NCBI GenBank assembly: GCA_052389635.1
Contig: JBQTHS010000095.1
Span: 9-64,008 of the forward strand
Reading direction: 5' to 3'
Length of the DNA: 64,000 nucleotides
DNA from: Bacteroidota bacterium
GTDB taxonomy: Bacteria > Bacteroidota > Bacteroidia > Chitinophagales > Chitinophagaceae
The notes beneath the pieces are model-generated. The model was not told the origin of the DNA, did no database searches, and saw only the letters and a program-made list of their open reading frames with translations. Positions 9,089 through 50,854 of this stretch are shown here, piece after piece. The translations under genes were made by a program, and so were the position numbers. Each line of letters opens with the position of its first letter. The stretch's first letter is position 1.

Positions 9089-9206
9089 AGTCGTTAGTCT
9101 GTAGTCGTTAGTCTGTAGTCGTTGAATGAGAACTGTACACAGAACCATTTTGTATAAAATGTTCTTAATAAAGGGCTAACGACTAAGGACTCCCGACTCC
9201 CGGCTA
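9089..9206. repeat. Inverted pair of heptamer arrays enclosing about 50 bp, with no cargo gene
   Basis: AGTCGTT AGTCTGT AGTCGTT AGTCTGT AGTCGTT (9089-9123) and GGCTAAC GACTAAG GACTCCC GACTCCC GGCTA (9174-9206), which is the reverse-complement type. Confidence 0.85.
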
Positions 9207-26585: not shown

Positions 26586-27521
26586 TTACTTGCCTTTTCC
26601 AAAATGCTTTAAGTCCCGCACCTCTTTTTCCGTCAGGAACCGCCACTTGCCCCTGTCCACATTTTTCTTTGTAAGACCGGCAAAAATCACCCTGTCCAGG
26701 TTTTTTACATCATAACCAAGCTGTTCAAATATGCGGCGGACGATCCTGTTGCGGCCACTGTGTATCTCCACACCGATCTGTGTTTTATCTTTTGCATCCG
26801 CATAAGCCAATACATCCACACTGGCGGGGCCATCTTCCAGTGTTACCCCTTTCAGTATCCTGTCAAAATCATTTTTCTCTAATGGTTTGTTCAGCGTAAC
26901 ATGATACACTTTCTTTACCTCATTGCTGGGGTGAGTAAGTTTTTGCGCCAGATCGCCATCATTGGTAAGCAGCAGCACACCGGAAGTGTTCCTGTCAAGC
27001 CGGCCAACGGGGTAAATTCTTTCGTTGGTTGCACGGCGAATAATATCCAGCACCGTTTTCCTTCCCTGCGGATCATCGGTGGTGGTGATGTAGTCTTTGG
27101 GTTTATTGAGCAAAACGTAAACAAGGTTTTTAGTCATGAAGATCTTTTTGCCGTTCACCCGGATATCATCTTTTGTTGATACTTTATGGCCTGGTTCCGT
27201 AACCAGTGCGCCGTTTACCTTCACCAACCCTTTTTTTACCATCTCAGCAGCTTCACGCCTTGCAGCCGCTCCTGAATGGGCGATGAATTTATTGAGCGGC
27301 ATGACAGCAGCTATTGCCGGCTTGCTGTGAGAAACCGGAACTGGTTGTAAACCAACTCCCGGCTCCCGGCTCCTGACTCCTGACTGACTTCGTTTCTTCT
27401 CAAAGTACTCTTCTCTTTCTTTTTTAAATTTCCTCTTTTCCTGTTTGAATTGTTCTTTAATGGCTGCATTGCTTTTCTTCGGGGCAAACTTGCTGAAATT
27501 GTTGGCTGGTTTCTTTTTCAT
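26586..27521 (-). CDS. S4-containing pseudouridine synthase (RluB/RluF/RsuA family)
   Basis: S4 domain LNKFIAHSG...RREA; motifs NKPKD and GRLDRNTSG. Confidence 0.92.
   Translation of the reverse strand: MKKKPANNFSKFAPKKSNAAIKEQFKQEKRKFKKEREEYFEKKRSQSGVRSREPGVGLQPVPVSHSKPAIAAVMPLNKFIAHSGAAARREAAEMVKKGLVKVNGALVTEPGHKVSTKDDIRVNGKKIFMTKNLVYVLLNKPKDYITTTDDPQGRKTVLDIIRRATNERIYPVGRLDRNTSGVLLLTNDGDLAQKLTHPSNEVKKVYHVTLNKPLEKNDFDRILKGVTLEDGPASVDVLAYADAKDKTQIGVEIHSGRNRIVRRIFEQLGYDVKNLDRVIFAGLTKKNVDRGKWRFLTEKEVRDLKHFGKGK
27355..27389. repeat. Heptamer array inside the pseudouridine synthase CDS
   Basis: ACTCCCG GCTCCCG GCTCCTG ACTCCTG ACTGACT, encoding SQSGVRSREPGV. Same unit type as 9174-9206. Confidence 0.75.
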
Positions 27522-36830: not shown

Positions 36831-38354
36831 TTATTGAAAAGAATAAGTTATTAGTTGATCAGCAGCCATGGTTTCCTGTCTGCCAGTTGCCAGCTGTTTC
36901 ACATTACAGGTGCCTTCTTTGAGTTCTTTTTCACCAATGATGATTACATAGAGGATATTCTTCTTTTCCGCATATTTAAACTGTTTGTCAAATTTCAGGT
37001 TTTCATGGTAGAGTTCGCAGCGGATGCCTTTGTGCCGCAATTGCTGCATCAGTTCAAATGATTTTTTGCTTTCCGCTTCGCCCAGGTTGAAGAATAGTAC
37101 CTGTGTGCCCACATGCACATCGGCCGGGAAGAGGTTCAGCTCCTCCATCACATCATAGATCCTGTCAACACCAAAAGAAATTCCCACACCGGGAATACCC
37201 GGTACGCCGAACAAACCGGTCAGGTCATCATAACGACCACCGCCGCCGATGCTGCCCATACTGACCCCTTTTGCTTTTACTTCGAAGATGATCCCGGTGT
37301 AGTAGTTAAGACCTCTTGCTAATGTTGGATCAGGTTGAATGTTAGGTGTAAGATGTTGGATGTTAGATAAGAGATAAGACAGTTCTTCAATACCTTTTTC
37401 CCCCTGAACAGTATTGCCAACAATATCATTCAATCCGGCAAGAATTTCTTCATTGCTTCCCTTTACGGCTAAATATTTTTCAACTATACTGACTTGGCCG
37501 GCGTTCAAACCCCTTTGGAGCAATTCTGCGTTTACTTTTTCCAAACCGGTCTTATCCAGTTTGTCTATGGCAATGGCGATACCATTCATCTTATCCGCAC
37601 CGCCGCATAATTCGGCAAGAGCAGTCAGGATCTTTCTGCTGTTGATCTTTATTTCAGCATCGATCCCCAGCTTTGCAAACACCGTGGTATAAATGGTTGC
37701 CAGTTCAAATTCGTTCAGCAAAGCAGTACTGCCCACCACATCCGCATCACACTGGTAAAACTCCCGGTACCTGCCTTTTTGCGGCCGGTCTGCCCGCCAT
37801 ACTGGCTGTATCTGGTAACGTTTGAAAGGGAAAGTAAGCTGGGCGTGATTCATAGCCACATATCGGGCAAAAGGGATGGTGAGGTCATATTTTAAGGCCT
37901 TTTCAGAGATTTCATCTTTTAGTTTTGGAAGATATTTTTCTCTTAAATCTGGGTTTTTAAATAATTCATCTGAAAAAATTTTAAAGAAGTCGGGTGGAAT
38001 ATCGTAAAATGGCGAAGAGTATGGTCCCGATACTTCCTCATTATCTGTTTTTTTTATATATTTTTTTGCTGATTCATCAACCTCTTTTACTCTTTTTTGA
38101 ACCGCTGCAAAAACCTGAATAAAAAAGTCGGAGGAAAAAGGATTTCCTGAATCAAGAATTCGATAAATCAATTTATCACCTTCCTCACCATATTTTCCCA
38201 TCAATGTATCCAGGTTCTCCATCGCCGGTGTTTCCAGCGGCTGAAATCCGTAGAGCTCAAATACATTTCGGATGGTATTAAGAATATAATTTCTTTTCCG
38301 AACTACATCCGGTCCGAAATCCCTTGTTCCCTGTGGCAGTGATGGTTTGGTCAT
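36831..38354 (-). CDS. hisS: Histidine--tRNA ligase with a long internal insertion
   Basis: Motifs QGTRDF, YDLTIPFARY, WRADRPQKGRYREFYQCD, ARGLNYYTG and GGGRYD. The start was moved to MTKP at 38354. Confidence 0.97.
   Translation of the reverse strand: MTKPSLPQGTRDFGPDVVRKRNYILNTIRNVFELYGFQPLETPAMENLDTLMGKYGEEGDKLIYRILDSGNPFSSDFFIQVFAAVQKRVKEVDESAKKYIKKTDNEEVSGPYSSPFYDIPPDFFKIFSDELFKNPDLREKYLPKLKDEISEKALKYDLTIPFARYVAMNHAQLTFPFKRYQIQPVWRADRPQKGRYREFYQCDADVVGSTALLNEFELATIYTTVFAKLGIDAEIKINSRKILTALAELCGGADKMNGIAIAIDKLDKTGLEKVNAELLQRGLNAGQVSIVEKYLAVKGSNEEILAGLNDIVGNTVQGEKGIEELSYLLSNIQHLTPNIQPDPTLARGLNYYTGIIFEVKAKGVSMGSIGGGGRYDDLTGLFGVPGIPGVGISFGVDRIYDVMEELNLFPADVHVGTQVLFFNLGEAESKKSFELMQQLRHKGIRCELYHENLKFDKQFKYAEKKNILYVIIIGEKELKEGTCNVKQLATGRQETMAADQLITYSFQ
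37333..37381. repeat. Seven-unit heptamer array inside the hisS CDS
   Basis: GGTTGAA TGTTAGG TGTAAGA TGTTGGA TGTTAGA TAAGAGA TAAGACA. Confidence 0.7.
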
Positions 38355-38357
38355 AAA

Positions 38358-38426
38358 AGTCAAATTGGTCAAATGGTGTCAATTGACGCTACTGGTTCAT
38401 TGAATATTGTGTATTGAATATTGAAT
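38358..38426. repeat. 8-10-bp array before hisS and a heptamer array forming the phosphatase C-terminus
   Basis: AGTCAAATT GGTCAAAT GGTGTCAATT GAC (38358-38387) and ATTGAAT ATTGTGT ATTGAAT ATTGAAT (38399-38426). Confidence 0.7.
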
Positions 38427-47843: not shown

Positions 47844-47919
47844 AGAATAAGGAATAAGAAATAAGGAATGAGGAAGTAGTTTTAAAGGCCAGCAGCTAAT
47901 GGCTATCAGCTGATAGCTA
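47844..47919. repeat. Two heptamer arrays before nuoF
   Basis: AGAATAA GGAATAA GAAATAA GGAATGA GGAAGTA (47844-47878), then GCCAGCA GCTAATG GCTATCA GCTGATA GCTA, which contains the perfect palindrome GCTATCAGCTGATAGC (47902-47917). Confidence 0.75.
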
Positions 47920-47927
47920 TATATAAT

Positions 47928-49283
47928 ATGGGAAGAAAATTATTATTAGACAAGGCTCACATTGAAAACATCAGGCGCTATGATGTGTACCGCCGCGAAG
48001 GCGGCTATCGAAGTGTGGAGAAAGCATTGAAAACTATGAGCCCGGACGCCGTTACTGAAGAAGTAAAGAAAAGCGGGCTTCGTGGCCGTGGGGGCGCTGG
48101 TTTTCCCACCGGGATGAAATGGGGTTTTCTGGCCAAACCGGAAGGAGTGCCCCGTTACCTCGTGGTGAATGCAGATGAATCGGAGCCGGGGACATTCAAG
48201 GACAGGTACCTGATGGAGTTCATTCCGCACCTGCTGATCGAAGGAATGATCACTTCTTCTTATGCTATTGGCTCCAACCGCTCTTACATTTATATACGGG
48301 GGGAATTTGCCTGGATCGTTGATATTCTCGAGCAGGCCATCACGGAAGCAAAGAACAATGGCTGGCTGGGAAAGAATATCCTGGGCAGCGGTTTTGATTG
48401 TGAAATATATGTGCAGCGTGGCGCCGGCGCTTATATCTGCGGGGAGGAAACAGCATTGCTGGAATCGTTGGAAGGGAAAAGAGGTAATCCGAGGATCAAA
48501 CCGCCATTCCCGGCGGTAAAAGGTTTATGGGACTGCCCGACAGTGGTGAATAATGTGGAGACCATTGCTGCCGTGGTTCCCATCGTCAATGAAGGGGGAA
48601 ATGAATATGCTAAAATCGGAATTGGAAAATCAACAGGAACGAAATTGATTTCTGCCTGTGGTAATATTAAAAAGCAGGGGGTGTACGAAATTGACATGAC
48701 CATAAGCGTGGAAGAATTTATTTACAGCGATGAATACTGTGGCGGTATTGCCAACGGAAGAAAACTGAAAGCCTGTATTCCCGGCGGTTCATCAGTGCCT
48801 ATCCTGCCCGCTAACCTTTTGTTGACAACAGCAAAAGGGGAGAAGAGGATGATGACCTACGAAAGTCTGGCTGATGGGGGTTTTGCAACCGGTTCGATGA
48901 TGGGTTCGGGTGGATTTATTGTGCTGGATGATACGCAGTGTGTGGTAAAACATACATACACTCTTGCAAGATTTTATCGTCATGAAAGTTGCGGACAATG
49001 TTCACCCTGCCGGGAAGGCACCGGGTGGATGGAAAAAATTCTCTGGAACATTGAAACCGGAAAAGGAAAGATGAGTGATATTGATTTACTCTGGGATATA
49101 CAGCGGAAAATTGAAGGGAATACGATTTGCCCGTTAGGAGATGCGGCTGCATGGCCTGTTGCCGCTGCTATCAGGCATTTCAGGGATGAGTTTGAATGGC
49201 ATGTGACGAACCCGGATGATGCACAAAGAAGGAATTATGGATTGGCCGGATACGCAGAACCTTTAAAAGCAGCTGTTTCTTAA
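47928..49283 (+). CDS. nuoF: NADH-quinone oxidoreductase subunit F
   Basis: Motifs SGLRGRGGAGF, NADESEPG, GAGAYICGEETAL and ESCGQCSPCREG. Confidence 0.98.
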   Translation: MGRKLLLDKAHIENIRRYDVYRREGGYRSVEKALKTMSPDAVTEEVKKSGLRGRGGAGFPTGMKWGFLAKPEGVPRYLVVNADESEPGTFKDRYLMEFIPHLLIEGMITSSYAIGSNRSYIYIRGEFAWIVDILEQAITEAKNNGWLGKNILGSGFDCEIYVQRGAGAYICGEETALLESLEGKRGNPRIKPPFPAVKGLWDCPTVVNNVETIAAVVPIVNEGGNEYAKIGIGKSTGTKLISACGNIKKQGVYEIDMTISVEEFIYSDEYCGGIANGRKLKACIPGGSSVPILPANLLLTTAKGEKRMMTYESLADGGFATGSMMGSGGFIVLDDTQCVVKHTYTLARFYRHESCGQCSPCREGTGWMEKILWNIETGKGKMSDIDLLWDIQRKIEGNTICPLGDAAAWPVAAAIRHFRDEFEWHVTNPDDAQRRNYGLAGYAEPLKAAVS

Positions 49284-49744
49284 AGTAAAAAATCAAAAGC
49301 CAAAATTCAAAACCGTGGAAGAAATATTTGAGACTTTTGAAGTAAATGAAGGGGAGAAACCTTATAATATTAGGCATAGGTGCTACTATTTTTCGAAGGA
49401 AGTAGTGCTGTATGTGAAAGCTTGTAAATATGATAAAGTTTATCATTCAGTATTTGACCAACTGATAAGAAGCGCAACATCCATTGGAGCTAACCTGGTT
49501 GAAGGCAGAGCGGGCAGTTCGAGAAAAGACTGGAAAAATTTTTATGTTATAGCCCTGAAGTCTGCCAATGAAACAAAATATTGGCTGTGCTTGATTAGAG
49601 ACACAATGGAAACAGACAAATTAAAAATAAAGGAGCTGATAACTGAAGCGGAAGAGATTTCAAATATTATTGCTACAATTATAGTGAATGCCCGGAAGGG
49701 GGGAGGTTTTTGACTTTTTAATTTTGACTTTTGACTTTTGAATT
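49282..49744. mobile_element. Putative cassette: a four-helix-bundle gene between inverted heptamer arrays
   Basis: Left arm AAAGTAA AAAATCA AAAGCCA AAATTCA AAA (49282-49312); right arm TTTTGAC TTTTTAA TTTTGAC TTTTGAC TTTTGAA TT (49708-49744). Mobility is inferred, not shown. Confidence 0.6.
49315..49713 (+). CDS. Four-helix-bundle protein (23S rRNA IVP / TIGR02436-like)
   Basis: Motifs QLIRSATSIGANLVEG and ALKSANETKYWL; GTG start. Confidence 0.92.
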   Translation: MEEIFETFEVNEGEKPYNIRHRCYYFSKEVVLYVKACKYDKVYHSVFDQLIRSATSIGANLVEGRAGSSRKDWKNFYVIALKSANETKYWLCLIRDTMETDKLKIKELITEAEEISNIIATIIVNARKGGGF

Positions 49745-49750
49745 ACTATA

Positions 49751-50854
49751 ATGGCTGAAGACAAAAAAACATTTAAAGTAACCATTGACAACATCACCCT
49801 CGATGTTGAACCGGGTACTACTATCTTAAATGCCGCCCGTAAAATCGGCGGCGATGTAACACCGCCTGCCATGTGCTATTACAGCAAACTGCAGGGCAGC
49901 GGTGGTAAATGCCGTACCTGCCTGGTGGAAGTAGCCGCAGGCTCTGCGGCTGATCCGAGGCCGATGCCAAAACTGATGGCCAGTTGCCGTACCACGGTAA
50001 TGGATGGTATGGTGGTAAAAAATATGACGAGTGAAAAGGTAACAGATGCAAGAAACGGGGTAGTAGAGTTCTTATTGATCAATCATCCGCTGGATTGCCC
50101 GGTATGCGACCAGGCCGGTGAATGCGACCTGCAGGACCTGGGATATAACCATGGGAAAGAAGGCACCCGCTACGAATTCAAAAGAAGAACATTTGAGAAA
50201 GAGGATATAGGGCCCTGCATACAGTTGCATATGACAAGGTGCATACTTTGCTATCGTTGCACCTATGTAGCCGACCAGTTAACTGATAACCGGGTGCATG
50301 GAGTGCTGGACAGAGGTGACCATTCAGAGATCTCTACTTATATTTCCAAAGCAATTGATAGTGACTTCAGCGGAAATATGATTGATGTGTGCCCGGTTGG
50401 TGCATTAACGGATAAAACATTCCGGTTTAAAAACAGGGTGTGGTTTACCAAACCGGTGGATGCTCACCGTGATTGCGACAAATGCTGCGGTAAAGTAACC
50501 TTATGGCAGCGGGGCGATGATGTACTGAGGGTAACGGCCCGGAAAGATGAATGGGGCGAAGTGCAGAGCTTTGATGGCAAACCCGGCTGGATATGTAACA
50601 ATTGCCGGTTTCATAAAAAGAAAGTCAGTGATTGGGTGATAGAAGGACTGACAAATATTAACCGGCACTCAGTGATAGGGCAGGGAAAATATCCGGGGTT
50701 GGTGATACCCAAAGAAACAATAGCCGATGTGATGGGTGGCAGGGATCCGAAACTGCTGATGGATATCCATGACATCAGTGATGTGAACAGTGTGGAGATA
50801 GCTTCTCTGCCAGGGCCGGCAACAAGTGAAACGTTTGATAAGGGTAGAAAATGA
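49751..50854 (+). CDS. nuoG: NADH-quinone oxidoreductase subunit G (short form)
   Basis: Motifs CRTCLV, HPLDCPVCDQAGEC, CILCYRC and DVCPVGAL; 367 aa. Confidence 0.95.
   Translation: MAEDKKTFKVTIDNITLDVEPGTTILNAARKIGGDVTPPAMCYYSKLQGSGGKCRTCLVEVAAGSAADPRPMPKLMASCRTTVMDGMVVKNMTSEKVTDARNGVVEFLLINHPLDCPVCDQAGECDLQDLGYNHGKEGTRYEFKRRTFEKEDIGPCIQLHMTRCILCYRCTYVADQLTDNRVHGVLDRGDHSEISTYISKAIDSDFSGNMIDVCPVGALTDKTFRFKNRVWFTKPVDAHRDCDKCCGKVTLWQRGDDVLRVTARKDEWGEVQSFDGKPGWICNNCRFHKKKVSDWVIEGLTNINRHSVIGQGKYPGLVIPKETIADVMGGRDPKLLMDIHDISDVNSVEIASLPGPATSETFDKGRK

Follow-up and report, generated by a model that had tools for sequence, protein, structure and literature searches.

A PF05635 gene enclosed by inverted heptamer arrays fills the nuoF-nuoG spacer of a Chitinophagaceae bacterium and may represent an old mobile-type cassette

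The window analysed here, a stretch of 64,000 nucleotides of Chitinophagaceae DNA, carries at positions 49282-49744 a PF05635 gene that fills the gap between nuoF and nuoG and lies between two inverted heptamer arrays. We see an even chance that this segment is an old mobile-type cassette whose arrays act, at the DNA level, as phased recognition sites for the ring protein that it encodes. No published description of a PF05635 gene with inverted arrays outside rRNA was found in the literature. The S23p/IVS-protein family is large, and its function has been a loose end since 1993; the cassette would tie together three such loose ends, namely the function of S23p, the origin of the ORF-bearing intervening sequences (IVSs) and the meaning of intergenic tandem heptamers.

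All parts of the locus lie on the plus strand. The upstream host gene nuoF (47928-49283 in the ORF list) ends with the TAA codon 49281-49283, within which the left (5′) arm begins (49282-49312; four units of AAAA[G/T/A]T[C/A] type, AAAGTAA AAAATCA AAAGCCA AAATTCA AAA). This arm stops 2 nt short of the GTG start codon of the cargo gene (49315-49713; 132 aa, TGA stop). The right (3′) arm (49708-49744) consists of five units that are the reverse complement of the left unit (TTTTGAC TTTTTAA TTTTGAC TTTTGAC TTTTGAA), includes the TGA at 49711-49713 and stops 6 nt before the ATG of nuoG, the N-terminal part of which was called at 49751-50854 in the ORF list. These limits are exactly those given in the original prediction, and the arrays are, as it had claimed, mutually reverse-complementary. 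Two arms of 31 nt with 81% complementarity give the ORF complementary borders like those of an IVS, and the inverted arrays at both ends provide the terminal inverted repeats expected of an IS or a MITE. Inspection of the arms and flanks revealed neither direct repeats indicative of a target-site duplication nor a transposase inside the cassette, again in agreement with the prediction. The cassette has no terminator-like site and no match in Rfam, rRNA included; its site is the nuoF-nuoG gap rather than helix 25 or helix 45 of 23S rRNA. The host sequences on both sides are well preserved across congeners, the C-terminus of NuoF being 84-95% identical and the N-terminus of NuoG conserved.

The cargo ORF matches the profiles PF05635 (E = 5e-20, 72.2 bits, curated cut-off 33.8) and TIGR02436 (E = 1.6e-22, 79.7 bits, curated cut-off 24), and its product matches PDB entry 2RLD (BT_0352; E = 4.7e-12). 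The AlphaFold monomer model (pLDDT 87) contains four helices, and Foldseek aligned it with 2RLD (TM 0.86), 2GSC (0.85) and Avd (4DWL, 0.82); it also resembles Avd in 8UBE. The original prediction stated a fold shared with Avd; homology with Avd is in print (PMC10053308), and the model comparison confirms the shared fold. Residues Q49, S56, N60, E63 and E86, invariant among 35 relatives, match the conserved Q/R..S...N..E motif described for the PF05635/S23p family (PMC3936711). The structures 2RLD and 2GSC comprise five chains each and Xcc0516 is stated to be a pentamer (PMC4990558); by analogy with the pentameric solved relatives, the cargo is probably a ring-forming protein. No known catalytic motif was found in it. 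Among orthologues, dN/dS ranges from 0.07 to 0.11 with saturated dS, and these comparisons indicate purifying selection on the cargo gene (dN/dS of about 0.1). Because dS is saturated, the arms have outlived neutral sequence.

Each of the 12 PF05635 genes in the genome is flanked by inverted arrays with a unit of its own, and the abutting upstream gene has the same orientation in every case. Armed PF05635 genes also account for about 20 of 24 in one congener and for 57 of 74 relatives elsewhere, bearing out the recurrence that had been anticipated. Seven genes of the genome that code for GxxExxY nuclease-fold proteins have inverted arrays as well. An arm score of at least 12 was reached by 21 of the 589 small genes of the genome, including 12 PF05635 or GxxExxY genes and 4 RAYT-like genes; RAYT-like genes with repeat flanks are present elsewhere in the genome. 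Homology between the paralogues C35 and C44 spans the gene and its arms and stops there. Gene-less hairpins number at least 57 against 19 gene-bearing ones, both being drawn from the same unit families, and they occupy co-directional, convergent and divergent gaps at background proportions. No copy of GTTTAAR, the commonest hairpin family, bears a gene in this genome. We rejected the possibility that the gene-less hairpins are copies of a single master, as their loops are unrelated to each other both here and in the congener G032; a recent copy-and-paste burst is therefore unsupported.

The original prediction had listed empty, collapsed, half and in-frame derivatives of the cassette within the window. 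The empty one (9089-9206) is a true gene-less hairpin of another unit family (arrays AGTCGTT/AGTCTGT against ACGACTA/GGACTCC, with a loop of about 62 nt) and takes up the whole space between two genes on the minus strand. The collapsed one, upstream of nuoF at 47888-47919, consists of AGCT-type units containing a perfect 16-nt palindrome, and the half derivatives are indeed unpaired arrays, located at 47845-47875, about 53945 and about 54491. The first of these, directly upstream of nuoF, is made of GAATAAG units, and congener G032 has a GAATAAG-armed PF05635 gene (L228). The claim for in-frame derivatives held in part: the array at 37339-37379 does lie inside the HisRS frame, but the one at 38399 falls at a gene boundary. 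The array at 27355-27385 is located in the stretch that extends a pseudouridine synthase ORF at its N-terminus, and it may precede the actual start codon. Gene-less derivatives do exist, and a series of decay stages can be seen, which includes an internally deleted cassette keeping both arms.

Over 57 related loci, a set that takes in cargo proteins down to 44% identity, the repeat unit has A at positions 1-4 (97-100%) and T at position 6 (88-90%), whereas positions 5 and 7 are variable; left and right arms do not differ in this profile. An alignment of 11 paralogues was too divergent to serve as a query for related loci. Relatives keep the AAAA[G/T]T[C/A] unit at no fewer than eight junctions, among them nuoF|nuoG, ilvB|ilvN, nuoK|nuoL, nuoA|nuoB, emrA|emrB and yebC|ruvC, and loci with this unit include CPR bacteria and Gammaproteobacteria. 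Two further protein branches keep cores of their own, GARGY and GCA[AG]T/CAGT, and GAAGTCT and GGCAATA are examples of units outside the present branch. Unit similarity is 0.668 for members of one branch and 0.446 for members of different branches, a difference reached in 0 of 2000 permutations. When two congeners were compared, six of seven homologue pairs with at least 55% identity had a common core; the exception is a pair with 67% identity and unrelated arms. The fit of the arms to the junctions is tight, with median gaps over 46 related loci of 1 nt from the upstream stop to the left array, −1 nt from the left array to the cargo start, 7 nt from the cargo stop to the right array and 4 nt from the right array to the downstream start; the mode is 4-5 units per arm. 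That each branch of the family has its own motif wherever it has landed suggests that the protein reads the repeats, although descent as one unit can suffice for gene and motif to be shared without any recognition. The same comparisons indicate that the cassette lineage has moved, slowly.

Arrays of the AAAADTM type are present in all five genomes that have the gene, and three or more of them occur in 5 of the 56 genomes without it. The three richest congeners (43-61 arrays) belong to the latter group, as they have no detectable cognate gene; one of these genomes, 97% complete, has 24 other PF05635 genes, none of which is AAAADTM-armed. It follows that such arrays are kept, or spread, in genomes that lack the cognate protein.

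The nuoF|nuoG junction is a hot spot: of the 29 congeners compared, 12 have an empty junction, five have this cassette and five have a GxxExxY cassette, and the remainder contain decayed remnants or an unrelated gene, so that the filled and empty alleles sought under the original prediction both exist. Named carriers of the nuoF|nuoG cassette include Sediminibacterium goheungense DSM 28323 and Flavisolibacter ginsengisoli DSM 18119. Sister species differ in their state at this junction. Because synonymous sites of the nuoF/nuoG tree are saturated and 10 of its 26 branches lack resolution, only well-supported sister pairs with differing states are given, rather than counts of gains and losses. 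A search for RNA runs that contain the locus found none. Contigs of sludge metagenome DNA contain relatives, all with other junction states, and a search of viral contigs for relatives, with phages in mind as vectors, returned none. The prediction had set against itself a family lacking paired arrays and a gene fixed at nuoF|nuoG; neither was found, because relatives are armed, the alleles at nuoF|nuoG vary and other junctions are occupied.

We propose that 49282-49744 is an old, promoterless insertion cassette with a motif, AAAA[G/T]T[C/A], specific to its protein branch. It occupies the entire nuoF-nuoG spacer and would be transcribed along with the nuo operon. The purine-rich 5′ array, which abuts the cargo start, would probably serve as a translation start region. 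The arrays would be phased recognition sites rather than an RNA stem maintained for pairing, and recognition would most probably take place on DNA, as duplex or hairpin, by the ring-forming protein of the cassette itself. The logic would match that of the RAYT-REP and Ssn-NTS pairs; Ssn (PMC11893778) and the RAYT-like genes of this genome are precedents for a gene placed between repeats that its product recognises. Over deep time, the cassette lineage would have been placed at many junctions of tightly coupled cistrons, where a copy may be lost cleanly or, by internal deletion, become a gene-less hairpin. Such hairpins would be retained, and in some genomes even amplified, where the cognate gene is missing.

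The original prediction had favoured an IVS-like element, the arrays of which would pair in the nuo mRNA over about 30 bp. On this model RNase III would cut the stem, excising the cassette RNA and separating or re-coupling the nuoF and nuoG messages. The background that it invoked is in print: the family does occur inside 23S IVSs, RNase III excises these at a 28-bp stem, and heptamers lie near the S23p start (PMC4990558). The minimum-free-energy fold pairs both arms, the median duplex energy over the related loci is −17 kcal/mol, and the co-orientation of all 12 cassettes with their upstream genes, together with arms that abut stop and start codons, is what one would expect of such an element, as is the complementarity of the variable positions, which exceeds its null slightly but genuinely (0.625 against 0.563). 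However, the substitution pattern does not support pairing in RNA, since mismatches between the arms, read on the sense strand, comprise 50 G·U against 54 A·C and 247 others (70% non-wobble) and covariation at the variable positions is as weak as the above excess. Moreover, the unit is conserved position by position, more than pairing alone needs, the gene-less hairpins are independent of the direction of transcription, the fold z-score is a weak −1.8, and the stem is AU-rich with 3-6 mismatches. Without a G·U excess and with such weak covariation, we read the arms as phased motif arrays and consider an RNA stem unlikely; some probability is kept for an RNA role of the cassette because rRNA IVSs are demonstrably processed as RNA (PMC4990558).

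Rather improbable, in our judgement, is a reading in which heptamer hairpins form an independent, STRR-like repeat class throughout the host, made and homogenised by slippage or served by another factor, and small promoterless genes settle in their loops or are captured between them, the protein being no reader at all. The surplus of gene-less hairpins with unrelated loops, the 43-61 arrays of genomes without the cognate gene, the one close homologue pair with different arms, and the sharing of one architecture, and even one site, by two unrelated cargo families would all fit it, and heptamer arrays with no link to a gene have been published from Xanthomonas, Nostoc and Beggiatoaceae (PMC4692102, PMC4679880). 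It is opposed by the tracking of the protein branch by the unit core over at least eight sites and several phyla, by the possession by GxxExxY genes of their own unit types with a period of 8-9, by the confinement of the C35/C44 homology to gene plus arms, and by the internally deleted cassette with both arms, according to which hairpins arise from cassettes. Chance, that is, a low-complexity A/T-rich spacer around an ordinary small gene, could appeal to the A/T-rich unit of this copy and to arms that are only 81% complementary, yet it is refuted by counts over the genome and deserves practically no credence: strict period-7 arrays number 87, against 6 of period 8 and 0-1 in shuffles, a reverse-complement partner exists for 68 arrays but for 4 in the control, at most 1% of small genes outside the known cargo families are armed, and other cassettes use G/C-rich units. 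An equally negligible chance is left to the cargo serving a diversity-generating retroelement (DGR) as an accessory protein of Avd type. Its fold resembles Avd (4DWL, 8UBE), and the search for a co-occurring reverse transcriptase recommended in the prediction did find three DGR-like enzymes in the genome (C43, C155 and C35:47109-48068), but none is linked to a cassette. No reverse transcriptase, template or variable repeat was found near any of the 12 PF05635 genes, the nearest reverse transcriptase being 44 kb off in another part of contig C35, and at nuoF|nuoG the gene context, inside the nuo operon, refutes this reading.

The proposed cassette of phased recognition sites has partial counterparts among known systems. 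ORF-bearing 23S IVSs of Coxiella burnetii and Leptospira contain the same protein family between complementary termini, the Coxiella IVS has 3-4 tandem GACAGAT heptamers directly upstream of the start codon, and 23S IVSs likewise have no transposase and no target duplication, their mobility having been proposed and never shown (PMC4990558). They differ in that an IVS lies in rRNA helix 25 or 45 and the cassette where two cistrons of a protein-coding operon meet, both arms of the cassette being full arrays of 4-5 units. In addition, the Coxiella gene is decaying whereas the cassette gene is under purifying selection, and IVSs are processed by RNase III whereas the mismatch pattern of the cassette does not favour an RNA stem. 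REP/REPIN-RAYT systems also place a single small gene between inverted copies of a dispersed hairpin-forming repeat, with gene-less doublets far outnumbering the gene and a repeat proper to each gene lineage. In contrast to these, the cassette carries a four-helix bundle without HUH/Y1 motifs, its arms are tandem 7-nt arrays instead of the single REP palindrome, its gene-less copies have non-conserved loops, and there are 12-24 paralogues per genome, each with its own unit. In the Ssn system with its NTS/SRM repeats (PMC11893778), a small gene is again flanked on both sides by a dispersed hairpin-forming repeat, which in that system its product binds; in both systems gene and repeat tend to be associated across phyla. 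Ssn is, however, a GIY-YIG nuclease with shown cleavage, while the cassette cargo lacks a catalytic fold, and NTS is a single motif as opposed to a phased array.

The short tandem heptamer repeats of cyanobacteria (STRR), the Xanthomonas GGGAATC repeats and the Beggiatoaceae TAACTGA repeats are intergenic tandem heptamers often located beside start codons, and the Xanthomonas repeats form 70-75 convergent (inverted) pairs per genome; no gene family is tied to them in these reports (PMC4692102, PMC4679880), unlike the unit families seen here, each of which corresponds to a PF05635 branch. GxxExxY (PF13366/TIGR04256) cassettes share layout, type of site, decay to hairpins and, in congeners, nuoF|nuoG itself, and they are distinguished by an unrelated PD-(D/E)XK nuclease fold and by 8-9-nt units with a C[AG]CA[AG]AG-type core. 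We found no published description of these repeat-armed GxxExxY cassettes in the literature either. Classical IS elements and MITEs differ from the PF05635 cassette, which has no duplication, no transposase and gene-less copies with unrelated loops. As a working analogy only, a ring that reads a phased repeat exists in TRAP (trp RNA-binding attenuation protein), a ring-shaped oligomer in which each subunit contacts one short core of a phased repeat with non-conserved spacers; its ligand is RNA, as has been shown, its fold is unrelated to that of the cargo, and it has 11 subunits that read GAG/UAG triplets.

More broadly, PF05635 rings might read phased heptamer arrays in a sequence-specific way, so that the 23S-IVS proteins, rRNA IVSs, STRR-type arrays and inverted heptamer hairpins would belong to one widespread protein-repeat system, with one subunit per unit, one branch per 4-5-nt core, a modular and possibly re-targetable code, and a parallel in GxxExxY nucleases with 8-9-nt units; we put this forward tentatively and are more inclined to doubt it than to believe it. 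If each branch does read its own 7-nt core, the S23p family would gain a function that a simple assay can test. Annotation could then treat many operon-wedged 'hypothetical' genes and many unexplained repeats as a single type of element, and a family of small proteins with diverse and predictable sequence specificities would be at hand. On a more modest reading, essential operons such as nuo tolerate a selected foreign gene between coupled cistrons for very long times.

Several local roles for the arrays were considered and set aside. As three-frame stop barriers they perform poorly: stops in every frame occur in 16 of the 57 5′ arms and 12 arms contain none, an effect too weak to be retained as a rule. 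A role as terminator is contradicted by the lack of a terminator-like site and by hairpins that are not enriched between convergent genes. A promoter in the right arm was likewise set aside, given that the variant unit occurs as often in one arm as in the other and that the TTTG spacing is wrong in the nuoF|nuoG copy. The right arm contains TAATTTTG, which we take to resemble the Bacteroidota −7 motif, and a sigma-70-type match (TTGACT-17-TATAAT, 11 of 12 positions) overlaps the ATG of nuoG.

The cassette at the nuoF|nuoG junction of the window contains a cargo frame of 132 codons with a GTG start (49315-49713), which matches PF05635 (E 5e-20) and TIGR02436 (E 1.6e-22). The protein is modelled with confidence as a four-helix bundle (4HB; pLDDT 87), with BT_0352 (2RLD) and Xcc0516 (2GSC) as nearest structures and the DGR protein Avd more distant. 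The left array of four A-rich heptamers (49282-49312) begins within the nuoF stop codon TAA (49281-49283) and finishes 2 nt 5′ of the GTG, and the right array of five TTTTGAC-type units (49708-49744) includes the cargo TGA and finishes 6 nt 5′ of the nuoG ATG at 49751, in full accordance with the original prediction. The potential for a stem of about 30 bp was also borne out in prediction, the arrays being 31 nt each, 81% complementary and paired in the predicted RNA fold, as was the statement that neither a target-site duplication nor a transposase is present at the cassette. The inverted arrays are thus real and far from chance. A sigma-70 promoter match (11/12; TTGACT, 17 nt, TATAAT) spans the right arm and spacer (49724-49752), its −10 box overlapping the nuoG ATG, and the right arm also holds TAATTTTG, resembling the Bacteroidota −7 box.

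Paired arrays had been expected at every 4HB gene of the source genome (3.5 Mb, 190 contigs), whose nearest relatives are Chitinophagaceae or Ferruginibacter, mostly MAGs from sludge and freshwater. Inverted tandem arrays indeed bracket all 12 of its PF05635 genes, with a different unit in each (GAGCTGC, GAATTAT, GAAGTCT, GGGAGCA, GGTTAATT, GGCAATA, AGTACTG, AATTAAT and TAGCTGA, among others). All 12 are co-oriented with an abutting upstream gene, and 9 have a co-directional gene at most 54 nt downstream. With no more than 16-31% identity to the window copy, the paralogues do not represent a recent burst. One of the 12 is split by a frameshift (C79:19179-19491) and retains its AGTACTG-type arms. 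An arm score of 12 or more was reached by 21 of 589 small genes, 12 of which belong to PF05635 or to GxxExxY (PF13366/TIGR04256) and four of which are RAYT-like with REP-type flanks. Seven GxxExxY genes, which have a PD-(D/E)XK fold, show the cassette layout (C72:34303-34653, C74:2155-2502, C59:7607-7960, C29:13948-14289, C89:533-844, C77:5862-6193 and C30:36353-36642), with units of 8-9 nt and a C[AG]CA[AG]AG-type core.

In a search of named genomes, relatives of the window protein were recovered at 80 loci. About 30 lie at nuoF|nuoG in Chitinophagaceae and 17 between ilvB and ilvN (Segetibacter, Olivibacter, Sphingobacterium, Lacibacter and others); further junctions are nuoK|nuoL, nuoA|nuoB, emrA|emrB and, in a Saccharibacterium, yebC|ruvC, so that the gene is not fixed at nuoF/G. 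Relatives also occur in Roizmanbacteria, Gracilibacteria and Gammaproteobacteria. One unit type persists in their arms, of 4-5 units each, down to ~44% protein identity: in the units of 57 loci, A occupies positions 1-4 in 97-100% and T occupies position 6 in 88-90% of units, variation is found at positions 5 and 7, and the profile is identical in left and right arms. Remoter relatives carry other units, such as GGTCAATTT or AGGTGTT. The spacing is extremely tight, with median gaps of 1 nt from host stop to left array, −1 from left array to cargo start, 7 from cargo stop to right array and 4 from right array to host start. Relatives of the PF05635 copies on contigs C35 and C159 likewise retain a core, GARGY (to ~47% identity) and GCA[AG]T/CAGT, respectively. 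Unit similarity was 0.668 within and 0.446 between branches, a difference matched in 0 of 2000 label permutations, although shared descent inflates this value, which is therefore a description and not a probability. The related genome G032 contains 24 PF05635 genes, of which almost every one has arms, with a unit particular to each gene; these units include GTGAATG, GGTTGCT, AGTCATATA and GAATAAG, which are orphan hairpin families in the source genome. Among seven homologue pairs of at least 55% identity between the two genomes, the core was common in six and different in one.

The original prediction read the cassette as an intervening-sequence (IVS)-like element processed at an mRNA stem. 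The complementary arrays and the fold that pairs them agree with this reading, and so does the Coxiella IVS, which has an S23p ORF and a 28-bp stem with tandem GACAGAT heptamers and is excised by RNase III (PMC4990558). If pairing of the sense RNA had kept the arms, however, G·U should exceed A·C mismatches, compensated changes should occur anywhere, and variable positions should match between arms. Over ~3,200 paired positions we counted 50 G·U, 54 A·C and 247 other mismatches; conservation of the unit was position-specific and not free at any position; and variable positions matched between a locus's own arms in 62.5%, compared to 56.3 ± 2.1% for arms of different loci. Pairing is thus at most a weak constraint, and RNA processing appears an unlikely role for the cassette. 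The motif constraint, equal in both arms, is stronger than pairing, a pattern that would be expected of sites read on DNA, either as a duplex or as a hairpin on either strand. Our favoured reading, to which we give an even chance, is a protein-repeat system that would act on DNA through a lineage-specific heptamer core. In such a system one ring subunit might contact each unit, as 4-5 units per arm compare with five chains in both crystal structures.

Comparison of the nuoF|nuoG junction across 29 congeneric genomes yielded both the filled and the empty alleles that had been anticipated. The junction is bare (9-44 nt) in 12 genomes and carries a 4HB cassette of the window type in five (the window genome, G012, G015, G019 and G020). 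Five others carry a GxxExxY cassette, a ~125-aa gene between inverted CGCAAAG-type arrays (loci L020, L021, L026, L027 and L036), the gene being reduced to a 66-aa open frame in one of them (G033). In a further genome (L035 in G030; 323-nt spacer) a GxxExxY cassette has lost internal sequence but retains its two arms and the final codons of the gene. It lies within a tandem duplication of a ~165-nt segment, which runs from the last nuoF codon and stop across the deleted cassette into nuoG, of which it includes 10 nt, and the duplication creates a mini-ORF (MAEV*) between the copies. Two genomes have a gene-less hairpin of 92-93 nt with GxxExxY-type arms, and one (G018) an unrelated 93-nt spacer without such arms. 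The remaining three (L019, L031 and L037 in G016, G006 and G031) carry an unrelated gene of ~280-300 aa, whose product starts with a signal-peptide-like N-terminus and has no NCBIfam match and which lacks flanking arrays. In a tree built from the coding sequence on either side, sister pairs with good support combine different states (GxxExxY/bare twice, 4HB/GxxExxY once), which makes the junction a hot spot, and the graded states observed, in which the gene is complete, broken, internally deleted or gone from a bare hairpin, show that gene-less hairpins arise from cassettes. The five nuoF/G 4HB orthologues have a dN/dS of 0.07-0.11 with saturated dS, and the cargo gene is maintained by selection; GxxExxY genes behave alike. 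All five retain 3-5 same-type units on each side where neutral non-coding sequence would be randomised, and their arms therefore outlive neutral sequence.

Strict period-7 arrays numbered 87 in the source genome, against 6 of period 8, 3 of period 9 and 0 in block shuffles, and TRF was concordant; 68 had a reverse-complement partner within 1.3 kb, compared to 4 in the reversed-sequence control. The partnered arrays included 57 hairpins that enclose no gene (window 9089-9206 is an example); their loops measure 13-150 nt, and they usually span the whole gap from gene end to next gene. They draw on few unit families, several also found in gene-bearing cassettes; the hairpin at C102:14671-14738, for instance, has the unit of the nuoF/G cassette. 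Within families the loops were unrelated, as they were in 18 hairpins read in G032. Co-directional, convergent and divergent gaps (36:8:6) occurred in background proportions (2028:507:514). The 5′ arm on either strand had G>C in 44 of the 57 and C>G in 6; plausibly this chirality reflects the translation start region, which the purine-rich 5′ arm would form 0-3 nt before the cargo start, and would be inherited by gene-less derivatives. Single unit families cluster locally (C54:2698-4059, C96:3787-5805 and C125:10287-11400), as where a GAATTAT-armed 4HB cassette, one host gene and a gene-less GAATTAT hairpin follow each other within 1.4 kb.

A census of triple units of the AAAADTM type, the degenerate form of the window cassette's unit, gave a very patchy distribution among 61 relatives (G032, 61 arrays; G024, 52; G020, 50; G025, 43; G012, 21; G015, 7; G019, 4; window genome, 3; most others, 0). 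Such arrays occurred in all five genomes with the cognate 4HB gene, and at least three were found in only 5 of 56 without it. The cognate gene was not detected in G032 (97% complete), G024 or G025, three of the four array-rich genomes. Arrays thus persist without the gene and perhaps multiply without it, and the census speaks against a simple cognate-protein model.

The window cassette is ancient, selected and promoterless, and is kin to rRNA intervening sequences but located at cistron junctions. The GxxExxY cassettes share its layout and its nuoF|nuoG junction, and differ in having units of 8-9 rather than 7 nt. We found no description in the literature of operon-borne PF05635 genes flanked by inverted heptamer arrays. 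The family is homologous to Avd (PMC10053308) and occurs in cas loci, with the motif GxxRxxxSxxxNxxE (PMC3936711, PMC10910872); Xanthomonas has inverted pairs of heptamers that are not linked to a gene (PMC4692102), and TAACTGA repeats have also been reported (PMC4679880). In RAYT/REP and Ssn/NTS-SRM systems a small gene is flanked by a repeat recognised by its own product (PMC11893778); the cassette resembles them as a small gene between repeats, and recognition by its own product is what we would propose here. New here are a hot spot that takes two cargos and shows a decay series within a single genus, a unit profile that is position-specific and tracks one protein branch across at least eight sites, and the array census set against gene presence, together with the negative G·U test.

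The four RAYT-like genes (IS200/Y1-type, HxH motif; C2:8467-8961, C25:26689-27060, C51:11198-11632 and C134:5851-6315) have inverted GC-rich REP-like hairpins on both sides, so that a classical REP/RAYT system coexists with the heptamer hairpins in the source genome. A co-occurring reverse transcriptase had also been suggested; three closely related ones with the DGR-type IGNYLSQ...YADD signature are present (C43:5194-6411, C155:8547-9671 and C35:47109-48068), none linked to the PF05635 genes found by profile. Finally, a GATGTTA-type heptamer array at 37339-37379 of the window lies within the histidyl-tRNA synthetase frame, at about residues 330-343, inside the catalytic domain, and leaves the frame intact.
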